DNA of 64,000 bases from Verrucomicrobiota bacterium (GCA_047947115.1 CP170459.1:288001-352000), one strand, 5' to 3'. Counted from the stretch's first letter, positions 40,033 to 62,424 are shown. The notes: generated by a model not told the origin, from the sequence alone. Program-made: numbers and translations.

Positions 40033-41214
40033 GTGAGCAAAAAGAAACGTAAAGAGTGTCCCTTATCGATTTTTCCACGCCTCAATCCGACAGGCATAAG
40101 AAAAAACATGCGGGCGGCGGACCTGATTGACGAAGCCTTCCTCGCATACAACGGAGGCCGCTTGCGCGAAGCCGCACGCTTGCTGACGGAACGCATGTTA
40201 CCGAAAGACGGGTTTATCGGGATGAGCCTGACCGGAGCTTTGACGCCTGCCGGTCTGGGCAAGTCCTGTTTGATACCTTGGATGAAGGCGGGGTTTGTGG
40301 ACTGGATTGTTTCCACCGGTGCCAACCTGTATCATGACCTGCATTACGGGTTGGATCTTTCCCTGCATCAGGGATCCCCGTTTCTGGATGATGTGGAGTT
40401 GCACCGCAGCGGGGTCATTCGCATTTACGATGTGATCTTCGATTACAACGTGCTGCTGGACACGGACGCATTTGTGCGCAGCGTGGTTCAGGGCCCCGAG
40501 TTCCAGCGTCCCTTGGGGACCGATGAGTTCCACTACCTGCTGGGCAAGTATGTGGATGCCCGAGCCAAGGCTTTGAATTTGAAAGACACTTCAGTCCTGG
40601 CGACCGCCTATCGCTACGGCATACCCATCTTCACAAGCAGCCCAGGGGACAGCTCCATCGGGATGAACGTGGCCGCGATGTCCCTGAGGGATCATCAAAT
40701 GAGTTTTGACATCAACCGGGACGTCAACCAGACAGCCGCCATCGTTTACGAAGCCAAGTCCAGCGGCCACACATCATCCGTATTTATTCTGGGAGGAGGT
40801 TCACCGAAAAATTTCATGCTTCAAACCGAGCCCCAGATCCAGGAAGTCATGGGGATCCAGGAAAAAGGTCACGATTACTTCCTTCAATGCACGGACGCAA
40901 GACCCGACACAGGGGGGCTGAGCGGCGCCACGCCGGCCGAGGCGGTCAGCTGGGGAAAAGTGGATCCGGAAACCCTGCCCGATTGCGTGGTTGCGTATGT
41001 GGACTCGACGGTTTCCCTCCCTTTGCTGACGGCCTACTGTCTATCAAGAAGTCCCAAACGAAAACACAAGCGGCTTTACGACCGCCGGGATGAACTCATG
41101 GACAAAATTCGGGAAGCATACCTGAATGTCGGCACAGTTTCCAAAATCACCACCAGCCGCAAGGTGGCCAAACGTTCTTCCAGCGTGGGACTCAAGAAAA
41201 AGCAGAAATCATGA
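40033..41214 (+). CDS. Deoxyhypusine-synthase-family protein (probable homospermidine synthase SpeY-like)
   Basis: [41 protein letters not shown] (catalytic Lys motif). Confidence 0.88.
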
Positions 41215-41960
41215 GAGGGTTGCTATGTCTCCTGATCGGCATGGGTGTCACCTTGTCCACATTCGGACAGGAAGCTCCTGTTTTACGATTACTGACCTAC
41301 AACATCCACCACGCCGAGGGTTTGGATGGCAAGGTGGACTATGATCGCATTGCCCGGGTTATTCGGGAAACCAAGGCAGATCTCGTCGCACTCCAGGAAG
41401 TCGACATCCACACTCAGCGTACCGACAGGGTGGATCAAGCCAGAACGATTGCTTCCAAACTGGGAATGCATCAAGTGTTCGGCAGGGCGATTCACTTTCA
41501 GGGCGGTCAATATGGTCTGGCAGTGCTGAGTCGCTGGCCCATTCTCACCCACAAGGTGCATGCTCTTCCTTACCGCATCAACCAGGAGCCGAGAATTGCA
41601 CTGGAAACGCACATCAGACCCGACGAAGGAATTCCCGAACTTTGCTTCATTGACACCCATCTCTGTCACCTCAGTGAAACCACTCGATCAGAACAGGTCC
41701 AGCGACTACTGCAAATCGTTCCAAAAAACGGGCCTGCTGAAGTAATACTTGCCGGAGATTTCAACGCACGTCCGGACAGCTCACCTATGGAGAGGTTATG
41801 GGGCGAAGGCTGGCGGGATTTGTTGGGCGAACATCATGGCATTGATTACCTGTTGGCCCCCGGAGCTTCGCATTGGGAAGTAAGGTCGGCCCGCATCGTG
41901 GACGCGCCTGTGGCCTCGGATCACATGCCTGTTTTCGTTGAACTTGAATGGAAGCAATAA
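41211..41960 (+). CDS. Endonuclease/exonuclease/phosphatase family protein, secreted
   Basis: [32 protein letters not shown]. Confidence 0.92.
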
Positions 41961-41997
41961 AAATCCGGGCTTCCACAGAGGGAAACCCGGATTTATT
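41956..41997 (-). terminator. Intrinsic terminator, best oriented for the minus strand (may be bidirectional)
   Basis: On minus: ATCCGGGTTTCC-ctctgt-GGAAGCCCGGAT-TTTT; the G-U wobble and the longer U-run are on minus. Confidence 0.8.
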
Positions 41998-42137
41998 GGG
42001 GTGGGGTAATTTTTATTCCAAGGATTGATCTGGTGAAAAATCGCTGGCGTGGTTTCGTCGCCATTTCATGTGTTCACCAAGCCATGAACTTGGGTGCGAG
42101 GAGAACAACAGTTTAATCTGAATAAGCTCTCCTCGTA
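41956..42137 (-). ncRNA. Candidate sigma54-dependent small RNA (~180 nt), possibly dual-function with an 18-aa ORF at 42013-42069
   Basis: Bounded by a -24/-12 motif and a terminator. 5' hairpin CGAGGAGAGC/GTTCTCCTCG (42135-42097) starts at the predicted +1; further hairpins; C-rich CCCCACCCCC before the terminator. Confidence 0.55.
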
Positions 42138-42148
42138 ACAAGGTGTTA

Positions 42149-42165
42149 AGCTTATAACATGCCAA
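42149..42165 (-). promoter_or_regulatory. sigma54 (-24/-12) promoter motif
   Basis: Minus strand TTGGCATGTTATAAGCT = TGGCA..., GG-N10-GC spacing exact. Confidence 0.6.
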
Positions 42166-42355
42166 CCAGCTCCATATCGTCGCTAAAGATTGAAGACGAA
42201 AAGAAACAAAAACAGCCGCCACGCCAACACATTCCCCCAATCAATTAACCTTCTTAAAGTTAGAAAAACCATAAGCAAATCCACCATCAGGTGCGAAACC
42301 CTGTAAGGAAAGTTTGAATGAAAAAGAGTAAACAAACCAACGTGTGGCAGATGAC

Positions 42356-42390
42356 AAGGATTACTCGGATTTATTCGGATTTACAAGGAA
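42356..42390. promoter_or_regulatory. Helically phased direct repeats, candidate upstream activating sequence
   Basis: aaGGATTac TCGGATTTA t TCGGATTTA c aaGGA; two perfect 9-mers 10 bp apart, ~230 bp upstream of the predicted sRNA start. Confidence 0.35.
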
Positions 42391-42445
42391 GGTCATGCGA
42401 ATAATTTCGTATATTCTAACACCTTTGGATTCAAAAGCACGCTCC

Positions 42446-45400
42446 TTAATCGAAGGCCCGAAGGACTCGTTTCATGTCCCCGGCCCGAACAAGCGTTCTC
42501 AAAGTGCGGCAATTGTGCTCATCCAGGATGCCTTCTGATTCCATATGATCTATCTGCCGCATGATTTCGGTGACAGCGTAGCGTTTCACCGAGCTTCGCA
42601 ATTCATTCTTGCTGGATTCAGGTAATGAAGAAAAGTCCAGTCTTGGCTCCGCGGCCTTTTGCGAATCATCTTCAGACCAAATCAAGTGCGAAAACTGAGT
42701 GTAAATCAACTGAACCAAGACTTCCATTTGGATAGGCTTGGCAAGGAACCCATCAAACGAGGATCTGACATAAGACGCCTGTTCATGTTCCAAAACATGG
42801 GCAGAGTAGGCTATGCATTTGGGCGATGCAGGCCCCAGCATCTGACGTATGCGCTTGAATGCCTCGGTGCCGGACATTTTTGGCATCATGATATCCATAA
42901 AGACCATTTCCACTCGATTGTTCTTAAGGTATTCGATGGCTTCCTCACCGGAGGTGACCGGCTCGCATGGAATCCCCCACAAGGAAAGCAGTCGGGTCAA
43001 TACTTTGGCATTTTGCTCCAGATCATCCACAACAAGTGCTCTGGGTGGAGCGTATTTCCACCTGGGCTTGGACAAGGACAAAAGATCCTTTATTTTTTCT
43101 GGATGCCCGGGGGCAATACTGATGGTAAAACTGAAAAGACTTCCTTGTCCCACCGTCGAATCACAGGAAAGATTTCCACCCAACACCTCCACCAACCTCT
43201 TTGCAATAGCCAATCCCAGCCCGATTCCCTGATGTTCACCACTTCCTTTCTGACTCCCTTGCTCAAAGGCCTGAAACACTCGCTGACGATCCTCGGGCAG
43301 CATGCCGGACCCCGTATCCTCAACTGAGAAATAAAGTTCAAATGGAACCTTGTCGAATGGATCTTCTGCTTCTTTGGGATGATATACCCGGATTTCCATC
43401 GTCACAGCCCCCTCGTTGGTGAACTTCACAGCATTGGTGATGAGATTCAACAGAACCTGCCTAATTTTGGCCAGATCACTATGAATAGTCAGGTGCGGCC
43501 AGGGAGGCGCACTCCGAAGGCTTTTCATCCGGTGACCACCATTCAAACTGTCCACAGCCCATTCGGAACATCGTATTTTATACTCGAGTCCTTTTTCCTG
43601 GCACGGTATGGCAACCATTCCCTGAATGGTATCGATCAACTCAGACAAAGCAAAATCTTCGAGTTGTAGTTGGATATGCCCCGACTCCATTTTTGAGAGT
43701 GTCAAAATGCTGTTGATAATTTTGAGCAAGTGTTGCCCGCTTCGCTCGATGGCCGACAGGCCATGGGACACTTGGTCATTGAGCATGGCATTACCCTTTA
43801 ACAGCTGGGAATACCCAAGCACTGCATTGAGCGGAGTGCGGATCTCATGACTCATTTTTGCCAGAAACAGGCTTTTGGCTTCACTCGCAATTTCCGCGTC
43901 TTTTTGAGCTTTTTCAGCAATTGTTCGAGCTTCCTTTAATTCCTGATTCACTTTCTCCAGATTCTGTCTGGTGGATGTTTCCTGTTTCAGCAACTGGTCT
44001 CTCAACAGTCGTGATTCTTTTCGATGTCGCAATCCCCGAACCACCATCGCCAACCCCCAAATCAATACCACCGAAGTTCCCAAAACCATAGGTACCACCA
44101 AAGCAAGATCCAAATACCAGGGAGGCACTACATTCAGCCTCAAAACAGCCGGCACGGAGGGATGCAGATCCGCATCGTAGGCTGTCAGTTCCAATGAATA
44201 GTCGCCACTTCTCTCTGGAACCCACTCAAAGCGATTCTCAGTAAGTATCAAACTTTGATGTTCCGCCTCGGGGGAACCGGAACATCGTATCTCCAGGCGA
44301 AAAAGATGCCGGTTGTCCGAACAAGCCGCATCCAAAACGTCAAAATCCAGGACAAGTCTCGTGTTCAGCTCAAAACTTGGAAGAGTTTCCGAAGGAATAT
44401 AAACTTGGTCAGCCCGGACAGTTTTAAAAAAAGTTGTGAAAGTTTCCTTCTCGGAACAATGCCGATCCACTCCATATTCGTTGGCAAACCACAGTTCTCC
44501 GGGAGAAGATTCCGCAATATCGTATATGGAATTCCCGGTAAGCCAGTCGTCCATCGTATAATGCATCATCATTTCCTGATGATATAAAAACAGCCCATTC
44601 GAATTGCTGCCGATCCACAACCTTTCTTCGGAATCTTCGAAAAGGCTCCAGATACCCGTGTCGTCCAGAAGCGTCCCGGTCACCAGAGGATGATACCGAC
44701 CCTCCACAACGGTCCCAACACCTTGTTGGGTCGCCACCCAAACCTCGCCTGATTTTCGCTGGAGGATGTCCAATGCCCGGTATGGACTCTTCGGGTTAAC
44801 ATGAGGCACAGCTACCCAATCGTTGCTTGTTTTGATGTAAATCCCAGTATCAGTTCCCAACCATATGCGGTCGTCCTTTTCCGCCCAAATGCACCAAACA
44901 TATTCATTGGGCAACCCTTGTGCTTCTCGCCATAAGCCATCAAACCTCAAAGCAACGTCCCCCTCATCAGTGGGAGCAAACCTCATGACACCTCCCCCGG
45001 CCCACTGCCTTCCTGCCCACAGGTATCCGGAGGGATCGTAGTCTCCAGCCAATACCCAATCACTGTAGGGAAGCCCATCTACGATTTCAGTCACCGATTG
45101 CCCCGGAGTTTCCTGAGTTGCCAGATGGTTCCCCAATAATGTGACGGGTTTTCCCTGCCGAATGAGAATATTTCGAGCATACCCGGGCAAAGGCAAATGA
45201 CGCAGCCCACGGACTGTCACCTCGGTGGTACCAAGCCATTCTGTCCCCACCAGAAGCCTATCTCCTTCGGAATCCCATCCCAGAGAAAAATGCTGGGTGG
45301 ATTGAAACCCAAACTTCTGCCCCATCCCAACCCAATATCGATCATTGTAACGACTGAACCCGTTGACCGTCCCCACCCACACATTCCCATGTTCATCCAA

Positions 45401-47539
45401 CTCGAGGGCGGAAATGTCTTCCGAAGGCAATCCGTCAGCCATGTCATATCGCATCCAGTAGCCGTTTCGCCATCGCCACAGCCCCTCGCCACGGGTACCC
45501 AACCACAACTCGTCGCGGGAACGAACAGCCATACAAGTGATCAAACCAAAGAAAAACTGGTCCGGAAGTCTCATTTCTTGCAACCCTTTCTCGTCGAGCC
45601 GATAAATGGAATGTGCCGTTTGGACAAACAAGACAGATTCATCAGTTGGCTTGCCAATGGAGGAAACCACCGCCTGTGACAATCCTTCATCCGCTTTATA
45701 AAGGATTTCGACCCCTTCCTCAAACCGAATCAAACCATGGTTCGTCGCACCCCACAGCGGCACATCTCCCTCCCACAATATTTGATTAAACCGACGTGAA
45801 GAAAGAATATCCCATTTGAGCGGAAGGGATTCTTCTTGGTAAATTTGAGGCATCGTTGCCTGGTAGAGACCTTTGTCGGTCACGGCAACCAATTTTCTTT
45901 TATCGGTGACAATCAGCTGATTCGCAACAGCACCTTCTGGAGACCGAAAAAATTGTTGTTCACCGGAGGCTTTCACCTTCAACAACCGGCCATCCTGGCA
46001 AGCAACCCAGCAAGCCCCGGAATCATCCTCCGCTATTGAAACCATCACTATGGTCTCCTCATGTTGAAGGGAAATACGTGTGAAATCATCTCCATTAAAG
46101 AAGTATAGTTGGGACCGATTGGCCAGCCAGATTCCTCCTTCTCCTGTAAAAGCAATGTTCTCCACCCGATTGCTCGGCATGCCATCTTTCAGGCCAAAGT
46201 GCTTCCATTTGCCAATCTTTGAACTGCTGATTTCAAAATCAAACCGATCCGAAAGTTCATCCACGTATATCTCCCTGCCGAGCATGGGTGATTGAGCAAC
46301 TTCGTCCCGTTTGGCAAACAAGGCTACCGGCAACGGCCGAGCGGACAACTGGTAACGGCCGGGTGGTATTCCGGCAAATTGATACCGACCACTCAGATCA
46401 CTCATCACACTGATACCCTCTGCCAGAAGAGTATTCCCTGGTTGTGACAGTAGGACTTCCACTCCGCTGACGGGTGTCGCCTTATCTAAAGCCCGAACAA
46501 ACCCTTCCACATTGAAGAGTTCCCCCAAACGCAAATGAACGATGGGATTGTCAGGTTGATTGGATGCCAAATTAATGTCACCACTGAAAGCGTGCGCATT
46601 CCCGTCAAACGCATGATACGCGACCTTCTCTTCCCCGGGAGGAATGAGGCTCAGGAAATCCCCATCGGCATCGGACATTAGACTAACCACCCCCCTGCCC
46701 CCCATGGTCATCTCAATCAAACACTGGGGCTGCGGGTCATCGGTTAGGTTCACTGTTTTACCATGCAGAATGGTGTGTTCCGGACCAACAACAACCCCCG
46801 GTTTCCAAGCAGGATTCCCTTTAATGCCAAGCTCGAAAGCCTGGGAGACAAAGGATGGCAGCGAATCCAAGTCAAATGTCCAGTCAACCAATTGCTGAAC
46901 CCTCAAATCCGGATTGTCCCTATCCCCGATCAAGGCCACTTCCGATGCATCAAGCATGCGGTTCCAGAAACGTACAGCATCCAGCTCACCCGCAAAGGTG
47001 GTCAAATCCCCTTCTTCGGTCCCCCCTAAATTCAAACGACTGCGGGTTGTCTGCAGAACATGGGTGGCCATTTCCTGTTCCGCCTGCCCGCCACGTCCAT
47101 CCAAATAAGCAATGGCAAGCTGGTTGCGGCGAAGGCAAATGGTCAAGTGATGCCAGGTATCCGAGATTCCGGGAAAACCAAAGCGATGCCTCGAAATGCG
47201 ATTGTCCGGCCCTTGAAAATCAACCACCAGCCCGTAGGAACCCTCCTGCAGGTAAGCGGAAACAGTGGTGTCTTTCAGCTGAAGATGGAACAACTGCGAA
47301 TTGGGTTGGCGACGCAGATATTTGAAACGGATGTCCAGTGAGAATCCGCCCCGAAATTCCACATTGTCACCCATGGCAATGAGAATTCCGTCATCAAATC
47401 CATCGAACTCCCAGATCCCTCCCCAGGATTGTACGCGCTCTTCATTGGATGAAGCGGCATGCGATCCGGAAATCAACTGGAAGAAAAGAACGACAGCAAA
47501 AATCAGCCTGCCAAACGAAACTGATTCGATCCGATTCAT
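42446..47539 (-). CDS. Giant hybrid sensor kinase: LamG + 2 carboxypeptidase-regulatory-like + beta-propeller + TM + HisKA-HATPase-REC
   Basis: WHHL..., FAGELDAVRFWNRML (LamG); SDLSGRYQFAGIPPGRY; DGLPSEDISALELDEHGNVWVGT repeats; FLAKMSHEIRTPLN; NLITNAVKFT; G.GLGL; FMDIMMPKMSG. Confidence 0.92.
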   Translation of the reverse strand: MNRIESVSFGRLIFAVVLFFQLISGSHAASSNEERVQSWGGIWEFDGFDDGILIAMGDNVEFRGGFSLDIRFKYLRRQPNSQLFHLQLKDTTVSAYLQEGSYGLVVDFQGPDNRISRHRFGFPGISDTWHHLTICLRRNQLAIAYLDGRGGQAEQEMATHVLQTTRSRLNLGGTEEGDLTTFAGELDAVRFWNRMLDASEVALIGDRDNPDLRVQQLVDWTFDLDSLPSFVSQAFELGIKGNPAWKPGVVVGPEHTILHGKTVNLTDDPQPQCLIEMTMGGRGVVSLMSDADGDFLSLIPPGEEKVAYHAFDGNAHAFSGDINLASNQPDNPIVHLRLGELFNVEGFVRALDKATPVSGVEVLLSQPGNTLLAEGISVMSDLSGRYQFAGIPPGRYQLSARPLPVALFAKRDEVAQSPMLGREIYVDELSDRFDFEISSSKIGKWKHFGLKDGMPSNRVENIAFTGEGGIWLANRSQLYFFNGDDFTRISLQHEETIVMVSIAEDDSGACWVACQDGRLLKVKASGEQQFFRSPEGAVANQLIVTDKRKLVAVTDKGLYQATMPQIYQEESLPLKWDILSSRRFNQILWEGDVPLWGATNHGLIRFEEGVEILYKADEGLSQAVVSSIGKPTDESVLFVQTAHSIYRLDEKGLQEMRLPDQFFFGLITCMAVRSRDELWLGTRGEGLWRWRNGYWMRYDMADGLPSEDISALELDEHGNVWVGTVNGFSRYNDRYWVGMGQKFGFQSTQHFSLGWDSEGDRLLVGTEWLGTTEVTVRGLRHLPLPGYARNILIRQGKPVTLLGNHLATQETPGQSVTEIVDGLPYSDWVLAGDYDPSGYLWAGRQWAGGGVMRFAPTDEGDVALRFDGLWREAQGLPNEYVWCIWAEKDDRIWLGTDTGIYIKTSNDWVAVPHVNPKSPYRALDILQRKSGEVWVATQQGVGTVVEGRYHPLVTGTLLDDTGIWSLFEDSEERLWIGSNSNGLFLYHQEMMMHYTMDDWLTGNSIYDIAESSPGELWFANEYGVDRHCSEKETFTTFFKTVRADQVYIPSETLPSFELNTRLVLDFDVLDAACSDNRHLFRLEIRCSGSPEAEHQSLILTENRFEWVPERSGDYSLELTAYDADLHPSVPAVLRLNVVPPWYLDLALVVPMVLGTSVVLIWGLAMVVRGLRHRKESRLLRDQLLKQETSTRQNLEKVNQELKEARTIAEKAQKDAEIASEAKSLFLAKMSHEIRTPLNAVLGYSQLLKGNAMLNDQVSHGLSAIERSGQHLLKIINSILTLSKMESGHIQLQLEDFALSELIDTIQGMVAIPCQEKGLEYKIRCSEWAVDSLNGGHRMKSLRSAPPWPHLTIHSDLAKIRQVLLNLITNAVKFTNEGAVTMEIRVYHPKEAEDPFDKVPFELYFSVEDTGSGMLPEDRQRVFQAFEQGSQKGSGEHQGIGLGLAIAKRLVEVLGGNLSCDSTVGQGSLFSFTISIAPGHPEKIKDLLSLSKPRWKYAPPRALVVDDLEQNAKVLTRLLSLWGIPCEPVTSGEEAIEYLKNNRVEMVFMDIMMPKMSGTEAFKRIRQMLGPASPKCIAYSAHVLEHEQASYVRSSFDGFLAKPIQMEVLVQLIYTQFSHLIWSEDDSQKAAEPRLDFSSLPESSKNELRSSVKRYAVTEIMRQIDHMESEGILDEHNCRTLRTLVRAGDMKRVLRAFD

Positions 47540-49074
47540 GCATTCTCAAGAATATACCGGGTTCCCCGAGACTGCCCGATTTTCCGGATCAGCCCCGCCT
47601 TCTCAAGTTGATTCAGGAGATAATAGGCTTGGTCAATATTGATCTTCAGTTCGTTCCGGCATTCCGCATTCCGAATCGATCCATGCTCGTCAATGTAATC
47701 AAGAATGGCTTTTTCAACGCGGCTTAAATGATCCGGCCACTTGCCGCCGGCAACGGCTTCCACAACCGGATCAGCTTCCGAAGCAGCAACCGAGTCAACC
47801 TGCTGACCGTAGCTGAAAAAATGAAGATGCTCCGGCTGAATACTGGCCCCTCCGGACTCAATCACCGCACGCTCCATGATGTTCTTCAACTCACGAATAT
47901 TACCGGGATAACCATAACTCAGCAGCACTTGTTTGGTTCCTTCTGTGACAACCGGAGCAGGTCGGCCCATTTGAGATGCAAACAGCAGCATGAAATGATG
48001 CGCCAGCAGCAAGATATCTTCTTTTCTCTCCCTGAGGGGCGGAATTTGGCATACGAATTGAGCCAGACGAAAATAAAGATCCTTTCGAAATACGCCGTCT
48101 CGAACAGCAACCTGCAGATCCTTGTTCGTGGCGGCAATAATACCCGCATCCACTTTTCTTGAAGCAGTCGATCCGACCGGCACCACAACACGTTCCTCCA
48201 AAACCCGAAGTAGTTTTGCCTGCATGGGCAAGGGAAGTTCTCCGATCTCATCAAGAAACAAAGTCCCGTTGCCAGCCATTTCGAAATATCCCTTTTGATC
48301 TCGAACGGCACCGGAAAATGAACCCTTCAAATGACCAAACAACATGGACTCCGCCAGCTCACCCGGTATGGCGGCACAATTGAGGCTGATGAAAGGAGCC
48401 TTCCCCTTGACCCGACCATGATGAATGGCCTTCGCCACCAGCTCTTTTCCCGTGCCACTCTCCCCACACAGCAGGACCGTAACCTTTTCATACGCCAGCA
48501 AGCTGTCGATCCGCTCCTGCAACGCAAGGGCTTGTTCACTCTGCCCGATCAATCCGGATCCGCCACCCTGGTCGGCGGTCTGCTCGGATAAAAGATCACG
48601 CTCAATTTCCGCGGTTTCACGACGTTGAATTTCTTCTTCAAGATCCCGGTTCTTGGACTCCAGCTCCCGCCTCAAACGATACAACTCCACATGCGTCCGA
48701 ATGCGGGCCATCAACTCGTCTTTGGAGAATGGTTTATTGACATAATCCACACCCCCGGATTCAAAGGCCTGAACCAGGGTTTCGGGTTCTTTGTCAACAG
48801 TGATGAAGATGACCGGGACAGGTGCGGTTTCCGGGACCTGTTTCAATACTTTGCAGGTATCAATGCCATTCAGATTTCCCGGCATACGGATATCCAGAAG
48901 GATCAAATCCATCGGTGTCTGACTCGCCACTTCGATGGCAAGATCACCATTGGGCACGCAATAAGCGTCAAAACCCTCGGGCTCGACCGTCTCACGCAAC
49001 AGCTCGCGATTTTCGGTGACATCATCAACCACCAATATTTTGGGATTCGTACTTTCCATGGTCCCTCCTGCCAT
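47536..49074 (-). CDS. sigma54-dependent response regulator (REC-AAA+) with a non-Fis winged-helix C-terminus
   Basis: ILVVDD, LLDIRMP, GESGTGKE, LFGHLKGSFSGA, LFLDEIGE, FRKDLYFRL, YPGNIREL; tail ILDYIDEHGSIRNAECR...GTRYIL; ATGA overlap with the kinase. Confidence 0.92.
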   Translation of the reverse strand: MAGGTMESTNPKILVVDDVTENRELLRETVEPEGFDAYCVPNGDLAIEVASQTPMDLILLDIRMPGNLNGIDTCKVLKQVPETAPVPVIFITVDKEPETLVQAFESGGVDYVNKPFSKDELMARIRTHVELYRLRRELESKNRDLEEEIQRRETAEIERDLLSEQTADQGGGSGLIGQSEQALALQERIDSLLAYEKVTVLLCGESGTGKELVAKAIHHGRVKGKAPFISLNCAAIPGELAESMLFGHLKGSFSGAVRDQKGYFEMAGNGTLFLDEIGELPLPMQAKLLRVLEERVVVPVGSTASRKVDAGIIAATNKDLQVAVRDGVFRKDLYFRLAQFVCQIPPLRERKEDILLLAHHFMLLFASQMGRPAPVVTEGTKQVLLSYGYPGNIRELKNIMERAVIESGGASIQPEHLHFFSYGQQVDSVAASEADPVVEAVAGGKWPDHLSRVEKAILDYIDEHGSIRNAECRNELKINIDQAYYLLNQLEKAGLIRKIGQSRGTRYILENA

Positions 49075-49109: not shown

Positions 49110-50168
49110 TCAAGCCCTCAGGCCGTTTTTCAAATCATCAACAAAGGCTCGGACATCCTCTTCCCGGGTATCCCATGAACACATCAATCGACACCCACCT
49201 TCACCAATGAAAGAATAAAACTTCCATCCCTGCCCGTGCATGTAATCAATCAGATGCCGGGGCATTTCCACAAAGACGGAATTGGCTTCACGCGGGAACA
49301 TGATCCGAACCTCATTGATGGGGCTCAGCAATTCCTCCATCAAAGCAGCCATGCCATTCGCGTGCCGGGCGTATTTCAGCCACACATTGTCCTGCAACAT
49401 CCCCACCCAGGGTGCGGAAAGATAGCGCATCTTGGAAGCCAACTGCCCGGATTGCTTGCAACGATAATCAAATTCATGGGCCAGCTCGTGATTGAAAAAC
49501 ATGACGGCATCCCCGACGGGGGTCCCGTTTTTTGTTCCCCCAAAACACAACACATCCACCCCCGCCTGCCAGGTGATTTCCTTGGGTTTCAAATCCAGAG
49601 AAGCGACCGCATTCGCAAAACGGGCCCCATCCATATGCATTTTCAAACCCAGATGCTTGGCGCGACAACCCAATGCTTCCAACTCCTCAACCGTGTAACA
49701 GGTCCCCATCTCGGTGGCCTGGGTGACGGAAACCACTTTGGGTTTGGGATAATGTATGTCCGTGCGGCGCTTAACCATCTCTTCCACATCATCCGGACGG
49801 ATCTTGCCATTGGGACCAGGGATCAGCAGTACTTTGGTTCCATTGGAAAAGAATTCCGGAGCACCGCATTCATCCCGTTCGACATGCGCGTAATCGTGAC
49901 AAAGAATGCTGTGATAGGACTGCGACATGGATGCCAGGGACAAACTGTTGGCAGCCGTGCCGTTGAACACAAAAAACACTTCGCAGTCTGTCTCAAACAG
50001 ATCACGCAACATGTCCGATGCACGTCTTGTCCACTGATCCTCGCCGTAGGCGGACACGTGTCCACGGTTGGCTTCCTCCATTGCTGCCCAAGCTTCAGGA
50101 CACACCCCGGAATAATTGTCACTGGCAAAATGCCGTTCGCGAGTCTTTGTCGATTGATGATCGGTCAT
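49110..50168 (-). CDS. ltaE: Low-specificity L-threonine aldolase
   Basis: FASDNYSG, FNGTAAN, DECGAPE, HMDGARFANA, FGGTKNG, KQSGQLASKMR. Confidence 0.92.
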   Translation of the reverse strand: MTDHQSTKTRERHFASDNYSGVCPEAWAAMEEANRGHVSAYGEDQWTRRASDMLRDLFETDCEVFFVFNGTAANSLSLASMSQSYHSILCHDYAHVERDECGAPEFFSNGTKVLLIPGPNGKIRPDDVEEMVKRRTDIHYPKPKVVSVTQATEMGTCYTVEELEALGCRAKHLGLKMHMDGARFANAVASLDLKPKEITWQAGVDVLCFGGTKNGTPVGDAVMFFNHELAHEFDYRCKQSGQLASKMRYLSAPWVGMLQDNVWLKYARHANGMAALMEELLSPINEVRIMFPREANSVFVEMPRHLIDYMHGQGWKFYSFIGEGGCRLMCSWDTREEDVRAFVDDLKNGLRA

Positions 50169-50315
50169 TGATTCAATTCCTGTCAGGCAATTAAAACCCA
50201 GTCTGCCGACCACACCGGCGAAAGGCCAGCATGAAATAAGAGACAGCTTGCAGTTCATGCAAATTTATTGAAAAATGCTCAGCTCAGGTTCACTGAATAA
50301 TTTGATAAAAAACAA

Positions 50316-53422: not shown

Positions 53423-53636
53423 GATGTTTTGGCAGGCAAGATTAAGCCATCAGAGAGGAAAGAAAAGCGAGAATTCTCCCGACGATAAAGAAGGTATCGG
53501 GGAGCACGCAAAATTCAAAAAAACAAGGTGCCGCCAAATTTAACAACGATTCGGCCTTGACTTGTCCATGGGTATCGTGTTTCTTTCCCAACTCTGTCCG
53601 GTGCAAACCACCAGACAGCACCTTGAAAAAGGGAAT

Positions 53637-53721
53637 GGTAGGATACCCAAGTGGCCAACGGGGGCAGACTGTAAATCTGCTGGCTTTGCCTTCACAGGTT
53701 CGAATCCTGTTCCTACCACCA
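53637..53721 (+). tRNA. tRNA-Tyr (GTA)
   Basis: GGTAGGA/TCCTACC acceptor stem, anticodon arm GCAGA-ctGTAaa-TCTGC, long variable arm, GGTTCGAATCC, encoded CCA. Confidence 0.97.
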
Positions 53722-53778
53722 CTTTTTCGGGGGATTTTTCAAAATCAACGACTTCCCGCACAGATTCCGCACAGCAAA

Positions 53779-54989
53779 ATGCTAAATTCCCGGTAAAAAT
53801 TTTCTATCGGGGGCAAACCGCGACAATCTACCAGAGATCCACCCGAGATGGCACATACCGGACATCGTGGTATGCGGATGGGAAACGCATTCAGCGGAAC
53901 TTCAAAAGACTTGATGAAGCGAGAGCTGCCGCAATGGTAGCACTTAAATACATCGCTCGGGGAGAAACAACCCTAGCTTCCCTGAACCCATCAAAATTAC
54001 GAGATGCTAAGTTGGCTGAGAATGCACTAAGCGCGTTTGGCATATCTCTTCTAGACGCTGTTACGGAGTATGTGGCGGCAAAAAAGCTCATTCCAAACGA
54101 TTCATTGGAGATCGCAGCTAAGTCTTGGGTAGAAAACCAAGTACAGATACAACCAATTCCGCTGCAAACGGCGGTAAAAGAGTACCTTAATTACAAGAAA
54201 ATACGGATAGCCCCGAGGACATACCGAGAAGAGGAACTGCGTTTGGAGCGGATATGCCAATCCATACAAAAAAATGTTAAGGATTTAACCAAATCTGATT
54301 TAGAACACTTTTTCGGTAAAGAGCTGCATCACCTGAAAGGTAAAAGCCGAAACCATTACCGTCAGACATTTAGGCAGCTATTCAATTATGCAGTAAGACG
54401 CGACTACCTCAGCGAAAAGCACAGATTATTCCAAGTGCTGGTAAACGAACCGACAAATGACTCAGCGCCAGAAATTCTAACTCCTACTGAATATAAGGAC
54501 CTCTTGAGAGAATCCTCGCCCGAAATGCTTCCTGTGATAGCAATAGCAGGGATGACGGGAGCTAGCCGTTCAGAATTACTTAGATTAACTTGGCAGGATA
54601 TATGGCGAGTGAAGAGTTACATTGAACTCGATGCAAAAAAGACGAAAACGAAGCAACGTCGGTTGGTCCCCATTCAGCCATCACTAGCCCTTTGGATAGC
54701 TCCATACAAAGACTACAAAGGCTCATTATGGCCAAGTTCTGAAGGTAGTTTTCATTCCCAGCTTCAAAAACTGATGACAAAATGCAACATTTCGGGCCAA
54801 AATTTATTACGACACAGTTACGCTTCGTACAGACTGGCTCAGATTAAGGACGCATCTCAAGTGGCAATGGAAATGGGTAACAGTCCAGAAAAACTTTTTA
54901 GAAATTACAACCAACTCCGGACACCAAAACAATCTGAGGAATGGTTCTCTATAACTCCCTCTTGTTTGAAAAGTTGCAACAAGCACTAA
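53779..54989 (+). pseudogene. Tyrosine recombinase/integrase, probably degenerate
   Basis: Arm-binding-like N-terminus (YRTSWYADGKRIQRNF), KTK, NLLRHSYASY, MGNS, LFRNY. ATG 53779 is one base out of frame; the box-I motif reads GASRSEL. Confidence 0.8.
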
Positions 54990-55367
54990 AAATCTAATCG
55001 TTTAAACTAAGATTTTCCCTCCCTCCTACCCTACAGGCCCTCCACAAAGACTCAAGAAACCACCAAGTGACACACCCTCCCCCAACCCGGAACCCATACA
55101 AATGGTTCTGGATATGGGCTTTTACAGGGGGCCTACCCCGTGTGTCAGCGTACAACACACACGGAAAAATTTATGGCCCCGGAATCAACATATGCGCAAG
55201 TCAAGGATCTGAATTGGAAACGGGTTCAGGGGTTGGTGACAAATTTGTGTTTTATGCGATTGTTTATGATTCTAATTTCACTATCCAGTTATTTTTGCAT
55301 TTTTTAAGTAATAATACTTAATCTGGCATGATATTTGGAAAGCGTAATTATTATTATTAAAATTATT

Positions 55368-56715
55368 GGTTCTTCGACAATTCCAGTGGAATTAAATTAA
55401 GCCGGGATTCTGAGTTTGCCGGCTACAAAGTAAAGCATAGTGATCATGTATACGGATGAGCGAAAACCTCTGGCCTTCCGCTTGACCGCGCTGAAAACGC
55501 TATTCAATCCTTCCATGAACGCTGTGGTCAGTTTCTTTTTCCAATGAGCAAGTATACCTTCCAAGTGACGTTCAATACTGTTTGCCACCTTGATCATTGG
55601 TTCCAACAAGTCCCCTGAATTTTTCGCCCTTCGTTTTACCCATCCTATCCATTTGACCATGTTTTTTCGCGCTGTAACCTCATTGCGACTGCGATAGACT
55701 TGTTGGAAATTTAATCGCATCTGGTAGGCGATTCCGGTTACTAAATTCTTCAAATCCAATTCCTCTAGCTGCTGGGTTTGACTCTTGGTTAGATTGGAGG
55801 GATTTTTACGAAATATCCAACGACTTGCTTTGAGCTCCTTTTTGGAATCCTTGTCTCCTTGATTTGCTTCGGCTTTGCGCACTTTATCGACTGCGTCATT
55901 GACCATGGCCACAGCATGATACTTGTCGAATACAATCTCTGCGTTGCCTAGATTCTCCCTTACTCCCTTTTGATAGGCCGGACTCATATCGATGGCAACT
56001 TGAGTGATCGCTTTTGGATGTCCGTTGTGCGCATATAACGCATCTGCAAAGCGTTGGAATGTTTCAGCGTCTTTGCCCTCGGTGGCAAAAATGACTCGCT
56101 TCTCCATCAAATCAGCAAACACCGTCAGGTAATCATGCCCTTTGCGTGCAGACAATTCGTCCGCACCGATCCAAACCACTTCACTCATATCCAACTTTGA
56201 ATAAGCTTCGTCGACATGGGCAAAAAGAATGCGCCACATGCGTTGATCACACTCTCCAATCAGTCCTGATGCTTTACTAACCGGCATCTCCCTCATCAAT
56301 GCCAACGCAAACCCCTCAAACGCCTGAGTAAAATGTTTTCCTTTACCCTCCCAGGGAACTTTAACCCGATAGGTTCGGTGACAAGATGGGCATTTGCCGC
56401 GAGGCACATTGCAGAGAATTTCAGATCGTTTTCCAAATACATCCATATGTCGCCAAGACCTTGTTTCGGTGTGATCGTAACAGGTAATCCCAGACGATTT
56501 GCAGGTCTGATGGGGACAAACTTCTTTCTCCCAGAGTTTGTCAGTTTCAGTAATAACCATGAAAAACTTTTCCGTCTCAGAATCGTAGTCAACGCCTCGA
56601 ACTTTCCAACACTCATCTAGCCCCAGCAATCCATGTATGGTCTTCTCAATATTCATGGAGCCATCATCTCACGATAGTTCCAAATGCTCAATTCCACTGT
56701 TTTTGTCGAAGAACC
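55368..56715 (-). mobile_element. ISL3-family IS, copy 1 (1348 bp)
   Basis: IRs GGTTCTTCGACAA(ttc/aaa)CAGTGGAATT. Confidence 0.95.
55397..56656 (-). CDS. ISL3 transposase
   Basis: Zn finger CPHQTC...CPSC; GADE, AIDMS..Y, FDKYH, EGLNS...KRKARGFR. Confidence 0.95.
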   Translation of the reverse strand: MNIEKTIHGLLGLDECWKVRGVDYDSETEKFFMVITETDKLWEKEVCPHQTCKSSGITCYDHTETRSWRHMDVFGKRSEILCNVPRGKCPSCHRTYRVKVPWEGKGKHFTQAFEGFALALMREMPVSKASGLIGECDQRMWRILFAHVDEAYSKLDMSEVVWIGADELSARKGHDYLTVFADLMEKRVIFATEGKDAETFQRFADALYAHNGHPKAITQVAIDMSPAYQKGVRENLGNAEIVFDKYHAVAMVNDAVDKVRKAEANQGDKDSKKELKASRWIFRKNPSNLTKSQTQQLEELDLKNLVTGIAYQMRLNFQQVYRSRNEVTARKNMVKWIGWVKRRAKNSGDLLEPMIKVANSIERHLEGILAHWKKKLTTAFMEGLNSVFSAVKRKARGFRSSVYMITMLYFVAGKLRIPA

Positions 56716-56720
56716 TTTTT

Positions 56721-58068
56721 GGTTCTTCGACAATTCCAGTGGAATTAAATTAAGCCGGGATTCTGAGTTTGCCGGCTACAAAGTAAAGCATAGTGGTCAT
56801 GTATACGGATGAGCGAAAACCTCTGGCCTTCCGCTTGACCGCGCTGAAAACGCTATTCAATCCTTCCATGAACGCTGTGGTCAGTTTCTTTTTCCAATGA
56901 GCAAGTATACCTTCCAAGTGACGTTCAATACTGTTTGCCACCTTGATCATTGGTTCCAACAAGTCCCCTGAATTTTTCGCCCTTCGTTTTACCCATCCTA
57001 TCCATTTGACCATGTTTTTTCGCGCTGTAACCTCATTGCGACTGCGATAGACTTGTTGGAAATTTAATCGCATCTGGTAGGCGATTCCGGTTACTAAATT
57101 CTTCAAATCCAATTCCTCTAGCTGCTGGGTTTGACTCTTGGTTAGATTGGAGGGATTTTTACGAAATATCCAACGACTTGCTTTGAGCTCCTTTTTGGAA
57201 TCCTTGTCTCCTTGATTTGCTTCGGCTTTGCGCACTTTATCGACTGCGTCATTGACCATGGCCACAGCATGATACTTGTCGAATACAATCTCTGCGTTGC
57301 CTAGATTCTCCCTTACTCCCTTTTGATAGGCCGGACTCATATCGATGGCAACTTGAGTGATCGCTTTTGGATGTCCGTTGTGCGCATATAACGCATCTGC
57401 AAAGCGTTGGAATGTTTCAGCGTCTTTGCCCTCGGTGGCAAAAATGACTCGCTTCTCCATCAAATCAGCAAACACCGTCAGGTAATCATGCCCTTTGCGT
57501 GCAGACAATTCGTCCGCACCGATCCAAACCACTTCACTCATATCCAACTTGGAATAAGCTTCGTCGACATGGGCAAAAAGAATGCGCCACATGCGTTGAT
57601 CACACTCTCCAATCAGTCCTGATGCTTTACTAACCGGCATCTCCCTCATCAATGCCAACGCAAACCCCTCAAACGCCTGAGTAAAATGTTTTCCTTTACC
57701 CTCCCAGGGAACTTTAACCCGATAGGTTCGGTGACAAGATGGGCATTTGCCGCGAGGCACATTGCAGAGAATTTCAGATCGTTTTCCAAATACATCCATA
57801 TGTCGCCAAGACCTTGTTTCGGTGTGATCGTAACAGGTAATCCCAGACGATTTGCAGGTCTGATGGGGACAAACTTCTTTCTCCCAGAGTTTGTCAGTTT
57901 CAGTAATAACCATGAAAAACTTTTCCGTCTCAGAATCGTAGTCAACGCCTCGAACTTCCCAACACTCATCTAGTCCCAGCAATCCATGTATGGTCTTCTC
58001 AATATTCATGGAGCCATCATCTCACGATAGTTCCAAATGCTCAATTCCATTGTTTTTGTCGAAGAACC
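56721..58068 (-). mobile_element. ISL3-family IS, copy 2 (1348 bp), tandem to copy 1 with a TTTTT spacer
   Basis: ...GTCGAAGAACC-TTTTT-GGTTCTTCGAC... at 56705-56731. Confidence 0.95.
56750..58009 (-). CDS. ISL3 transposase
   Basis: 419 aa, two residues differ from copy 1. Confidence 0.95.
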   Translation of the reverse strand: MNIEKTIHGLLGLDECWEVRGVDYDSETEKFFMVITETDKLWEKEVCPHQTCKSSGITCYDHTETRSWRHMDVFGKRSEILCNVPRGKCPSCHRTYRVKVPWEGKGKHFTQAFEGFALALMREMPVSKASGLIGECDQRMWRILFAHVDEAYSKLDMSEVVWIGADELSARKGHDYLTVFADLMEKRVIFATEGKDAETFQRFADALYAHNGHPKAITQVAIDMSPAYQKGVRENLGNAEIVFDKYHAVAMVNDAVDKVRKAEANQGDKDSKKELKASRWIFRKNPSNLTKSQTQQLEELDLKNLVTGIAYQMRLNFQQVYRSRNEVTARKNMVKWIGWVKRRAKNSGDLLEPMIKVANSIERHLEGILAHWKKKLTTAFMEGLNSVFSAVKRKARGFRSSVYMTTMLYFVAGKLRIPA

Positions 58069-58267
58069 AATTTTTTTTACAATATATACATGTTTTGACG
58101 TTAATCCAGAGTTTTCTTCATTTTCTTATCAAGTGGATTATAAAAAAACAATTGTTTTGACGCCTGTAAAAACAGACTTTCTTATCTCATGAGGATACGA
58201 AAACAGATCATCTTGTTAGCTGTTGGGTAATCTACCCACGTGAAACCAGATCGAATCTCAAAAAGTT

Positions 58268-58297
58268 GAGGAGAAAACCAAAACTGGCTTTCTCCTC
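58268..58297 (-). terminator. Hairpin downstream of the cargo genes, possible terminator
   Basis: GAGGAGAAA.CCA-aaac-TGG.TTTCTCCTC. Confidence 0.45.
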
Positions 58298-58436
58298 TTG
58301 GGTGACCCTAAGTACATTGCGAAACATAGGATCTTGGCTTGGTTAGCTTATGAGTAACCGCAAATGTGTGTACTATGTATTTTTTTCTTTTTGAAGCTTT
58401 TTTTCTGTGTTCTGCCTTAATTTAAGAAATACTTTG

Positions 58437-58988
58437 TTATCGACTCCACTCATTAACTTTCTTTAGGGTAGCCTTGCTAATCGTCGGTTTACCACTGGGA
58501 TTATTAACGTATCCTACAAATTCCATTATAGATGGATTACTTTCTTCATACGCGTAACTATATTTAGTGACGAATTGATCTTTCTTGGGGTCTAATCCAC
58601 ACAGGGGATCAAAAGTGAACTCTATTTTTGAATCACTGGAAAACGACAATGCTAAGGTCGGAGCATTACCCAAAGCACAATAATGAGTAGCAGTCAATTT
58701 TCCTGCCTTGTCATGATAGATTGTGACCATCGGTTCGTCTTCCTTCATTGGCGCAGTTTCTTCAATCCAACTTTCCATAATGCTAGCCCCTCCGCCTATG
58801 AGCTTGTATTCAGTCCGCAGAAAAACACTTTCTCCATTACTGCGTTTAATAATACCTTCCCATTTACCGGTTAGTTTCAGTAACTTTACGAATCCTGAAC
58901 TGCTTGTGGTTTTTGGCTCCTGTTCTGCTGCGTTTAGCATGTAAACCAAAGTTTGCAACACACATAAAGTACATAGTAATTTTCTCAT
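58437..58988 (-). CDS. Secreted beta-rich hypothetical protein (183 aa)
   Basis: Signal peptide; L.GKWEG, MVTIYH, ATHYCALGNAP. Confidence 0.8.
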   Translation of the reverse strand: MRKLLCTLCVLQTLVYMLNAAEQEPKTTSSSGFVKLLKLTGKWEGIIKRSNGESVFLRTEYKLIGGGASIMESWIEETAPMKEDEPMVTIYHDKAGKLTATHYCALGNAPTLALSFSSDSKIEFTFDPLCGLDPKKDQFVTKYSYAYEESNPSIMEFVGYVNNPSGKPTISKATLKKVNEWSR

Positions 58989-59048
58989 ATTTTTTATTAT
59001 CTATTTTGATTTATATTGTAACCCAGAAATTAATGTATGTTGATACCA

Positions 59049-61136
59049 CTACATTGATATTTTATCATAAACAATAAATTGGTTCGGCTCACCACTACCA
59101 TTATACCAAACACCTCTCCTTTGTTCATACCATTTATTTTCTGCGACTTTGTAAATTGAATGGTATGTCCCATTAGCATGGTAACTATAAAAATGAGTCA
59201 AACCATTTTTAACTTCTAATTTCATTGGACATACAACTTTCCACATTAATTGACCTTCTGCATTGTATACTTCCAATTGCTCCGTATTTAACGAGATACG
59301 CTTGATACGATAGCTACCATTTTCCATATCAGCTCTCCAAACGCCAGTAAGCTTCTTCCATTCTTGTTCGACAGGATTGTACTTACGATCAGCTCGTAGA
59401 ACTATTTGATAAGAAGGACCTCTTTCCATTATTCGAAGTGCATTCCAGTCCATATTTGGTTCTCGCAACATTTGTATACCTTTTTGTGCAATTTCTGCAA
59501 ACGTTTCATTTACATTTTCTGATGTGGTATCCTTAAAATGTGCGGTCATAAACTCATGATTAACCTTTTCACGTGTTGAGGAAACCAATTTATGTAATCC
59601 CCAACCTTTGATATTGTTATCCAATGATATGACAAGGTTCCAAAACGGTTTTGCAATATTCAACTCAGCGTTTACATATTGCTGCGTCAACCCATTTAAT
59701 GGTGTCATGTGATCATGTTCTATCAAATCAACGTTGATAATACTGGCGTTTTCTTCCCAAACTTGATCCACGATATGATACGTATCGCTACCTGCATCTT
59801 GAAATAATTGCTTGGTTTTCTGCCACAATTCTTGTCGATCGCCTACTAATGCTAAATCTAAATTATTCCAAGATTCTGAATCTTGCATATCTTCATATGA
59901 ACCGTAAACCTGCACAGTCGCGAAATTGGGTTCTCCATCTTTATGATTACTCAATTTATTTAATTGCCAAAGGTGAAGAATTCCTTTTTGCATTCTTTGC
60001 TCGTGTAACATTTTCCATTTAGATTCGGCCTCGAGGTAAGCCGGAATATCTTCATCTTTAACTTTTTTGTAATCAAGTTTCACAAATCCGGTGAACTTTT
60101 TAGCTTCTGATGCTCGTTTAAAGTAGGAACGGTACTGAGTATCCTCGTTTTCGAGAATGTCGGAATCAGCCTCTGGTTCCACTTTTGTCAGAATATAACC
60201 TTGCCCATTGTATTTGTAATCTCCGTTTATCTTTGACTGCCACCGAGCGTGTATTTTGTTCTCACTGATAAATCTTCTTACCAGCCTTCCCTCGCCTTGA
60301 CGTTGCCCCAAAGTGAATGGATCTATAAAGTCCCATCCACCAGTTTGCGCAATACCATTACGATTTACGGACCAAATAATTATTTCGCCGGTATTGGGAT
60401 TCTTTTTACTGATGTTGAAGCCTGCTTCGTTTACTTCTCCTGCTTCGTTGTAAAAAACCCACTTTTCCAATAAGCAGTTGCCTAAATCCCATTTTTGAAA
60501 CTCTATTTCTAGGTTTCGGACGCCAGCTTCGTTGTATGATTCCCATTTACCGATTAAATCATTAAACCTATCATCTAGGATGGGCATTTTACTTCTGTTT
60601 ATGATTAACTCACCAACCTCCACTGGCTTATAATCTATTTTTTCGCTCTCCTCGGGTGAACTTAATTGGCCAAAGAACTTGCCACCAACAACAACATCCT
60701 CAGTCCATGATTCTTTTTTATCTACGGTCGTATTCCATGCATTATGAATGCTACCAGAAGCAATGCCATTTGTTGTGACACCTGAAAATATTACCTTACT
60801 TGAATTTTCTTTGAATAGCTCGTTCGCTATCCCATATGCCCCGTCACTACCCGTCCACAGTCTGTTTCCTATGTTGTTAGTTGTGGGCAATTGATAAATG
60901 TTCCACACTGATATAGGTTCGTGAGTAGTAGGATCAACTGTAACCGAAGTTATTCGGTTAATTCCCACTTCAGCATCCTTATAAACCCAAGTATATCCAG
61001 ACTCTGGATTACCATCATTATTAGTCTTTTTCCATTTCCACGTTCCGTGCAATGGATGATCCTGAGCTGATAATGGAACTGAATGTAGACAATTGGCTAA
61101 TAAAACGCATTTAATTATTAGTAAAATGTTTTTCAT
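59049..61136 (-). CDS. Secreted multidomain hypothetical protein (~695 aa)
   Basis: Signal peptide from MKNILL (SA-QD); three L.G.W-initiated beta modules and two YxxAE...W.L modules. Confidence 0.8.
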   Translation of the reverse strand: MKNILLIIKCVLLANCLHSVPLSAQDHPLHGTWKWKKTNNDGNPESGYTWVYKDAEVGINRITSVTVDPTTHEPISVWNIYQLPTTNNIGNRLWTGSDGAYGIANELFKENSSKVIFSGVTTNGIASGSIHNAWNTTVDKKESWTEDVVVGGKFFGQLSSPEESEKIDYKPVEVGELIINRSKMPILDDRFNDLIGKWESYNEAGVRNLEIEFQKWDLGNCLLEKWVFYNEAGEVNEAGFNISKKNPNTGEIIIWSVNRNGIAQTGGWDFIDPFTLGQRQGEGRLVRRFISENKIHARWQSKINGDYKYNGQGYILTKVEPEADSDILENEDTQYRSYFKRASEAKKFTGFVKLDYKKVKDEDIPAYLEAESKWKMLHEQRMQKGILHLWQLNKLSNHKDGEPNFATVQVYGSYEDMQDSESWNNLDLALVGDRQELWQKTKQLFQDAGSDTYHIVDQVWEENASIINVDLIEHDHMTPLNGLTQQYVNAELNIAKPFWNLVISLDNNIKGWGLHKLVSSTREKVNHEFMTAHFKDTTSENVNETFAEIAQKGIQMLREPNMDWNALRIMERGPSYQIVLRADRKYNPVEQEWKKLTGVWRADMENGSYRIKRISLNTEQLEVYNAEGQLMWKVVCPMKLEVKNGLTHFYSYHANGTYHSIYKVAENKWYEQRRGVWYNGSGEPNQFIVYDKISM

Positions 61137-62070
61137 TTTTTTGGTATGGTGTTTGTAGTGATTTTGAATAATTGAGGAATGTATGTAGGATATAAAGAAA
61201 GTGGATCTAATGGATGCCATATCTGCGATATGGTGCTGTTCTTATTGTTATCATTTGTAAAGGTTGCCTCGTTTGAATTAGCGGAGCTACAATGAAAGCA
61301 ATGCGGACCATTTAATTGACAATTTTCAAATTTACGACCTCTGCGTATTTTTGATTATTAGTTTAACGATGTGATCACATCGAAATAACTTATGAGACCC
61401 TATTCTTCGAGACAGAATAAGCAACTTTTAAATAAATATTTTAAAGATTTGTATGCTTAATTACGTATTGGTTATTTTTTTCTTCATATTCTTCTTTTTT
61501 TTCTTTTATTTGTCACGTATAGTGAGACAACCAATTGTTTTGCAATAATGCAGTATCTGATACGTTTCTAATGGCAGCAATTACCCTTGCTAACAGAAAT
61601 TTACTGCGAGAATCTTTAATTCAATTTTAAATAAGGACAGAAAGGAGGAAAAAAACATTGCCATGAATTTCTCCTCGGGGTTGTTTCAATTGTGCCTCGC
61701 ATCACAACGAAACTAAGGCCTGAAAATCACAAAAGTCTGAGGCATATGAGATGGATTGTATCCATACAATATCAACTTGCGCTAATAATTTGAGGAGAAA
61801 GCCGCAGATACAGCTTTCTCCTCTAGTGGGGAGGTTGTTCATTGCGAAACAACTATTAAACGAGCCTGATGTTGATAAGGAATCTATCAACGCCCTTAGG
61901 ATGATATCATTTCACGCAATGTGCAATCTATTCTCCAACTTTTGACGTATATATTATATTATGCTATTTTATTTATTTTATCTAATTTATTTTGTCATTT
62001 CTTGAATTGATTACTTCAAATACGAAACTAAAAGTGATGCCTTTCTTTGAAACCTGATTAATTTGTTTGC

Positions 62071-62407: not shown

Positions 62408-62424
62408 CGAATACTACTTCACTT

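Follow-up and report, generated by a model that had tools for sequence, protein, structure and literature searches.

Analysis of a 64,000-nucleotide (nt) window from the genome of a Verrucomicrobiota bacterium (GCA_047947115.1, CP170459.1:288001-352000) identified a predicted non-coding RNA gene situated directly behind a two-component operon, in which a sigma54 activator is followed by a large hybrid sensor kinase (Table 1). On the basis of its sequence, the region is regarded with good confidence as a real and conserved sigma54-type transcription unit. The chances are about even that its product is a sigma54-driven small RNA (sRNA) of 140-180 nt, which would act without Hfq through pairing of a C-rich seed with G-rich RNA. 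The locus forms a compact unit: a sensor, an activator and its predicted site, a promoter whose +1 is predicted, a seed of 12 nt and a candidate partner RNA. Positions are those of the window unless marked otherwise, with G000 denoting the source genome and G001 to G007 the other genomes compared.

The GG-N10-GC motif, predicted +1, 10-bp hairpin, C-rich tract and U-tailed terminator reported in the initial annotation of this region were all located where described, by sequence inspection and folding. The GG-N10-GC match is exact in TTGGCATGTTATAAGCT, with the +1 predicted at 42138. By itself this motif carries no information, having 53,586 matches in the genome, and the fuller promoter motif was found once in the window compared to 0.2 expected, a count reached by 18 of 100 shuffles. 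As the motif is weak when taken alone, its weight rests on conservation. TTGGCAT-N5-AAGCT is kept at identical spacing in the promoter of G007 (TTGGCATACAACAAGCT), with the chance of the promoter pattern per intergenic region being 0.0012 in G000 and 0.0004 in G007. The words of the putative upstream activator site, CCGAATAA and TCCGAGTA, recur in G007 at -244 and -232; these count through their position only, since shared 8-mers are overall at chance level. As a sigma54 system presupposes, rpoN was found in the G000 genome with its RpoN box intact, and a canonical sigma54 site was identified ahead of glnB (a gene recognised from sequence). The correct sigma54 spacing was enriched in upstream regions, with 32 matches compared to 5-16 at other spacings. 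An interpretation as a sigma70 extended -10 element (TGTTATAAG) was discarded, as it is missing in G007 and no sigma70 site was found. Domain search recovered the architecture previously given for the kinase and the activator. The latter possesses Walker A/B and R-finger motifs alongside the Pfam receiver and Sigma54_activat domains, and its L1 loop reads GSFSGA, as in 13 of the 13 closest homologues; the change of Thr to Ser in this loop was present in 32 of 120 activator homologues among those listed. By analogy, a sigma54-activating function is likely for this protein.

Table 1. Location of the predicted RNA, its parts, the associated genes and two related elements elsewhere in the genome
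Feature	Location	Strand	Remarks
Predicted non-coding RNA	41956..42138	-	183 nt (138 nt in G007); from folding and comparison
Sigma54-type -24/-12 promoter, TTGGCAT-N5-AAGCT (TTGGCATGTTATAAGCT)	42165-42149	-	281 bp past the kinase stop (42446)
Putative upstream activator site, tandem words CCGAATAA / TCCGAGTA	42362..42378	-	at -240 / -231; putative binding
5' helix P1	42097..42135	-	10 bp (42135-42126 pairs with 42106-42097); masks Shine-Dalgarno (SD)-like AGGAG
Domain P2	42018..42093	-	ends in conserved anti-SD-like UCCUUGG (42024-42018)
C-rich seed, 12-mer TACCCCACCCCA (RNA UACCCCACCCCA)	41997..42008	-	predicted unpaired, p>0.9
Intrinsic terminator	41994-41961, tail to 41956	-	14-bp stem, U-rich tail; conserved U.G pair
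Sigma54 activator (bacterial enhancer-binding protein, bEBP)	47536..49074	-	receiver, AAA+ and C-terminal FaeA/PapI-like winged helix, not Fis helix-turn-helix
Hybrid sensor kinase	42446..47539	-	1697 aa; start overlaps activator stop
Threonine-aldolase-like gene (Beta_elim_lyase)	49110..50258	-	flank, upstream of activator on the same strand
Endonuclease/exonuclease/phosphatase (EEP) gene	41211..41960	+	flank, convergent with the module
Structured non-coding element with own terminator	G000:C1:~1,435,490-1,435,755	+	between fmt (different gene in G007) and the rpmE promoter
~80-nt hairpin RNA	G000:C1:5,784,490-5,784,567	-	covarying stem, TTGACA-type promoter, U-tail; upstream of tRNA-Asp

Folding of the whole RNA gave a z-score of -6.4, with none of 200 shuffles being equally good, and the 5' domain without the terminator gave a z-score of -5.0. 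An A-rich linker separates the P2 domain from the seed. The earlier assignment to the minus strand by folding holds in part, being favoured by the 5'-domain z-score (-3.2 for the opposite strand) and by the conserved U.G pair of the terminator, but not by total folding energy (-64.3 compared to -65.6 for the antisense). An Infernal search against Rfam returned nothing over the RNA, neither at gathering score nor at E<=10, and no extra copies were detected in G000 by BLASTN or by covariance model, the RNA being single copy.

The module was found intact in two of 22 family genomes, namely G000 and G007, with activators 72% and kinases 44% identical. G007 is congeneric and sister to G002-G005 rather than to G000 (tree support 99/98 and 100/99), and the two copies are consequently well separated. 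UCCUUGG and the 12-nt seed are identical in both, while the middle of the RNA can hardly be aligned and shows a length difference of 45 nt. The 5' helix of G007 comprises 11 bp from +2 and masks AGGAG with a different partner strand; in both genomes the helix begins no more than 4 nt from the predicted +1. Five of the 14 terminator pairs are compensated, all through G007, with the U.G pair kept. Of the checks suggested initially, conservation was supported for the promoter, the seed, the position of the 5' helix and the terminator, and compensation of pairs for the terminator; covariation is not claimed for the 5' helix, as its 3' arms are non-homologous between the two genomes. The single 12-mer shared by G000 and G007 compares to 0.04 expected (reached in 29 of 1000 simulations), and the three shared 10-mers to 0.46 (47 of 1000). 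Within the 183 nt of the RNA, contigs of a ~97%-identical strain (one strain type, present in three RNA runs) showed four changes, compared to 19 over 307 nt upstream of it (Fisher p=0.047), with no change in the promoter or the upstream words and with a stem change that preserves pairing. In G001, the activator is interrupted near codon 254 by an ISL3 end (end of contig C171), another lies just 5' of the seed (start of C141), and no kinase orthologue was found, making it likely from the sequence that the module was lost by an insertion-sequence-associated deletion. The remnant seed of G001 has one change relative to G000, and this genome is not independent support, as the 5' part has been replaced by an ISL3 end.

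The same conservation bears on the possibility that the region is simply the 3' untranslated region and bidirectional terminator of the operon, carrying a relic sigma54 promoter and ribosome-binding site of a lost target gene and having no function in trans. Sigma54-type intergenic motifs, some with variant -12 boxes, were found ahead of a protein gene in six of the 17 stretches that flank paralogous activators as well as at the G000 paralogue. A neighbouring sigma54 output would therefore seem common in this activator subfamily and, judging from sequence, non-coding at the present locus. A relic would also account for the SD-like AGGAG after the +1 in both genomes, the poorly conserved RNA middle with its length difference and the loss of the module between ISL3 ends in G001. 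No other terminator-like site was found from the kinase stop to the terminator of the RNA, which fits a 3' untranslated region; operon read-through could equally stop at the RNA's own terminator, as with crcZ. However, the exact unpaired 12-nt tract, UCCUUGG, the masked AGGAG and the promoter spacing have been kept although the kinases are only 44% identical, and strain changes are fewer inside the RNA than upstream. A relic is accordingly possible, though unlikely.

Searches for the module beyond these genomes indicated that it is genus-restricted by sequence, and the initial description of a module of the Planctomycetes-Verrucomicrobia-Chlamydiae lineage was not sustained. An order-wide search for the promoter and C-tract pattern gave 28 matches in 24 of 401 genomes compared to approximately 23 for a reversed control, and a strong terminator stood behind the C-tract only in G000 and G007 among these matches. 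A covariance model of the 3' half of the RNA clearly matched only its three training loci in the 22 family genomes (others E>=0.045) and gave no match in any of the 80 viral pattern matches examined out of 94. When the winged helix of the activator was turned into a pattern and searched GTDB-wide, two records were returned, one being orthologous, and a metagenome scan with the kinase C-terminus returned generic receiver domains (31-47% identity) with no orthologue among the matches listed. The element was not found beside paralogous activator loci (18 of 20 stretches examined, including the truncated G001 orthologue).

A partner of the seed was sought among mRNA starts, the initial annotation having proposed pairing with G-rich ribosome-binding sites, and no conserved target of this kind was found. 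In G000, AAGGA and AGGAG are enriched before starts and GGGGT, GGGTG and TGGGG are depleted there. When seeds of 24 nt were slid along 4,266 starts called with a simple in-house caller, the best energies stayed at the level of shuffled controls, with the exception of uvrB. This best match was rejected as a target, since the uvrB G-tract forms part of a promoter spacer and is absent from four of five relatives, including G007. Comparison across genomes was made with exact G-tracts only. In G007, 47 + 24 G-tract loci were examined, which cover 54 of 57 GGGGTGGGG sites directly together with the pair on contig C34, the module's own site being excluded. Eleven of these 71 loci were conserved at the orthologous place in G000, with nine being coding, two intergenic and none at a start.

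The first of the two conserved intergenic G-tracts is GTGGGGTGGGGACCC, within the structured element upstream of rpmE, which also carries TGAGTGGATCA and has no Rfam match. Among the 22 family genomes this element was found in G000, G001 and G007 only. It contains the exact 10-nt complement of the seed, a 10-mer with seven intergenic copies in G000, and co-folding with the seed gave gains of 10.7 and 4.2 kcal/mol. In all three genomes the G-rich tract (GUGGGGUGGGGAC) is predicted to form a local hairpin with a GGGG loop. These models are suggestive of the rpmE-upstream element as the partner of the seed, it being the best candidate found. In G001, the terminator of the element is split over two contigs by other sequence. 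A separate conserved hairpin was observed before a shikimate-kinase-like gene (G000:C1:~4,955,150-4,955,350) in seven of eight genus genomes, with no Rfam match; its motif GCCTGATAACRGTGAGTGGATCA is also found in the rpmE-upstream element, in opposite context, and might represent either a match to the seed or an operator.

Several observations weigh against a seed-pairing sigma54 RNA. Its -12 box is AAGC rather than the consensus TTGC, and AAGC-type sites number 21 genome-wide compared to 15 for the reversed control. The GSFSGA loop of the activator recalls PspF T86S, which is reported to have altered sigma54 binding, with one sigma54 patch bound as in the wild type and the other patch not (PMC3467059). 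The terminator also lies where the convergent EEP gene ends, and convergent genes need a terminator in any case. Only two intact copies exist, all covariation derives from one comparison, and shared 8-mers are at chance (eight against 6.0 expected; 292 of 1000 simulations); this narrow distribution also limits the significance of the system. No conserved mRNA-start target was found for the seed among the called starts and exact G-tracts. With regard to the candidate partner, a longer G007 fold buries the rpmE-upstream G-tract in pairing, G001 keeps this tract despite loss of the module, and the co-occurrence of seed and G-rich element amounts to two tree changes only, with 37-42 of 500 shuffles being as low. 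In metatranscriptomes (eight of 23 listed runs compared, as assembled contigs, which give neither ends nor strand), contigs span the region evenly in three runs, in pieces in one, and leave it nearly uncovered in four, with no discrete transcript appearing.

Under the proposed mechanism, the kinase would sense an extracellular carbohydrate or surface cue, as its lectin and propeller domains suggest, and would phosphorylate the activator in a presumptive phosphorelay. Once phosphorylated, the activator would occupy the tandem words around -240 and switch on sigma54-dependent synthesis of the 140-180-nt sRNA, whose free C-rich seed may pair with G-rich RNA independently of Hfq. Should the partner be the G-rich element upstream of rpmE, the RNA could serve as a sponge or antagonist of it; an alternative output would be occlusion of SD sequences through the UCCUU word. 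Base pairing in the manner of the C-rich sRNAs sX13 and RsaE is proposed because the seed is conserved and unpaired. sRNA regulation is close to unstudied in Verrucomicrobiota, and the locus would carry the two-component/sigma54/sRNA design beyond Hfq-using proteobacteria, into a lineage in which Hfq was not found. Literature listings, mostly without subscription papers or motif-discovery supplements, gave no description of such a Verrucomicrobiota system. The most likely identity of the element, a Hfq-independent C-rich pairing RNA under sigma54 control, is a combination that was not found in them.

Comparison with known systems showed both likenesses and differences. In Pseudomonas, crcZ lies behind cbrB and has an RpoN -24/-12 promoter, being also reached by read-through (PMC5113210). 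The present locus resembles CbrAB-CrcZ in having a predicted RNA gene immediately after a two-component operon that encodes a sigma54 activator, and in the RpoN-type -24/-12 motif before that RNA, here predicted from sequence and with a non-consensus -12 box, in a genome with rpoN. It differs in that the activator precedes the kinase, the kinase is a lectin/propeller hybrid and its activator carries a winged helix together with a GSFSGA loop; furthermore, there is one C-rich seed, no Rfam match to the CrcZ family, and Hfq (PF17209) was found in none of four genomes searched, including the single-contig G000 (96% complete). In the LuxO-Qrr system of Vibrio, a phosphorelay leads to a sigma54 activator and base-pairing sRNAs, with Qrr being Hfq-dependent, multicopy and unlinked. 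A phosphorelay to a sigma54 activator with a base-pairing sRNA as output is likewise proposed here, with differences in the single linked copy, the lack of a detected Hfq and of an Rfam match; the activator scored 268 bits against the LuxO model NF041946 (cut-off 800). A CsrB/RsmZ-type sponge differs in that CsrA was not found in G000 or G001 and the GGAG of the RNA lies in a stem. CsrA was observed in the congeneric genomes G006 (C58) and G007 (C2). As Hfq was not found in the four genomes, nor CsrA in G000 and G001, strict versions of the CrcZ, Qrr and Csr mechanisms can be set aside, and the analogy to CbrAB-CrcZ and Qrr drawn in the initial annotation finds support in the cbrB-crcZ-like wiring and not in the mechanisms.

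The sRNAs sX13 of Xanthomonas and RsaE of Staphylococcus are described as having unpaired C-rich motifs that pair with G-rich RNA independently of Hfq (PMC3771888, PMC2790875). The RNA described here shares a conserved, predicted-unpaired C-rich motif with these. It differs in the position of its seed, in the linker before the terminator and not in apical loops, in its sigma54-type promoter, in having no Rfam relation to them and in having no conserved ribosome-binding-site target found. By analogy, the RNA is probably wired like CbrAB-CrcZ while being mechanistically nearer to the Hfq-independent C-rich sRNAs. Its fold is unlike that of 6S RNA (RF00013), a long rod with a central bubble. A 6S candidate was observed elsewhere (G000:C1:1,157,649-1,157,830, minus strand), with a full-length match scoring 44.3 bits compared to the gathering score of 46.4.

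The second conserved intergenic G-tract was identified as the opposite strand of the hairpin RNA upstream of tRNA-Asp, which has an invariant anti-SD-like core, GGGGUUCCCCACCCCCACCUCCUUGGCG (GGGGUUCCYCACCCCSACCUCCUUGGCG), and no Rfam match. This hairpin was found in 11 of 22 family genomes (12 BLAST matches, one of which covers the downstream promoter only), and a near-identical core was found in seven of 200 other phylum genomes, with up to four copies in one. It appears to be an uncatalogued family of anti-SD-like RNA across the phylum. UCCUUGG and CCCCACCCC, the sole two conserved words of the sigma54-type RNA, are both present in its core. The hairpin differs from that RNA in its length of ~80 nt, single long hairpin, TTGACA-type promoter, phylum-wide occurrence and reversed word order, and in that prediction places its ACCCC within a paired inner stem. 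From these sequence likenesses, the RNA of the window may be an inducible functional sibling or competitor of the tRNA-Asp-upstream hairpin RNA.

The shared words also fit a different role, in which the sigma54 RNA is real and acts as a decoy for a protein that binds C-rich or anti-SD-like RNA, as CrcZ does for Hfq/Crc, perhaps the same protein that binds the tRNA-Asp-upstream hairpin. The lack of a conserved mRNA target and the wiring, which is the same as that of cbrB-crcZ, are consistent with this. Known decoy RNAs have repeated motifs, in contrast to the single seed found here, and ACCCC is predicted to be paired in the tRNA-Asp-upstream RNA; with neither Hfq nor CsrA among the candidate proteins detected in G000, a decoy is judged unlikely. 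A wider scheme, in which a Verrucomicrobiota Hfq-free network of C-rich and G-rich RNAs has a constitutive tRNA-Asp-type hairpin, spread over the phylum, pairing with the G-loop RNA upstream of rpmE and the sigma54-induced RNA competing for that G-loop RNA, is speculative and quite doubtful. If true, an extracellular carbohydrate signal would be converted into a sponge-of-a-sponge switch on translation.

Two further explanations were considered. The G/C tract could be a DNA-level site or a chance match, with the promoter-like motif unused, and the motif is indeed not significant alone in the window, with AAGC-type sites near control level genome-wide. Its recurrence in G007 at the frequency per intergenic region given above, with the same distances to the upstream words and to the first helix, makes this very unlikely. 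That the promoter serves an mRNA encoding a small peptide, with a structurally controlled ribosome-binding site, hardly merits credence, since the frames on which it would depend (in G007, AAGGAG, 5 nt and a GTG-initiated 12-codon frame; in G000, GGTGA followed by an 18-codon frame, and an overlapping frame of 75 codons) agree neither in position nor in length or sequence, and a common frame is precluded by an indel situated between UCCUUGG and the seed. The 75-codon frame is a TTG-initiated open reading frame (42240-42013, minus strand) that overlaps the RNA; it is not kept in G007, and no small open reading frame is common to the G000 and G007 RNAs.

With regard to the genes of the module, the kinase was found to possess Laminin_G_3 (a ConA-like lectin), CarboxypepD_reg, Reg_prop propeller repeats, HisKA, HATPase_c and receiver domains, with a hydrophobic leader at its N-terminus and a single hydrophobic segment after the beta-propeller repeats. 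The flanking aldolase-like and EEP genes directly adjoin each other without the module in four of 11 genomes examined, and the activator, kinase and non-coding unit thus behave as a single cassette.

Paralogous kinase/activator modules were observed in G000 (C1:1,726,702, minus strand) and G007 (C3 and C1), with an adjacent sigma54-type promoter before genes of secreted-type proteins; the repeated CGCATAG words upstream of their promoters are probably their activator sites. At G000:C1:707,920-708,528 (plus strand), a site nearly identical to the G007 sRNA promoter is followed by a signal-peptide-bearing gene, which we take to be Hcp1-like. The activator just before this site is presumably RtcR-like, facing rtcB/rtcA-like genes, and as it looks like RtcR, this second AAGCT site beside a bEBP gene gives weak support. 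Within the window, a tRNA-Tyr-anchored island was found at 53,562-63,743, in which an integrase-like gene, located after the tRNA-Tyr, has behind it three copies of an ISL3 transposase, two of them arranged in tandem, together with unannotated open reading frames. A second tRNA-Tyr is located ~14 kb further along the genome from this island.

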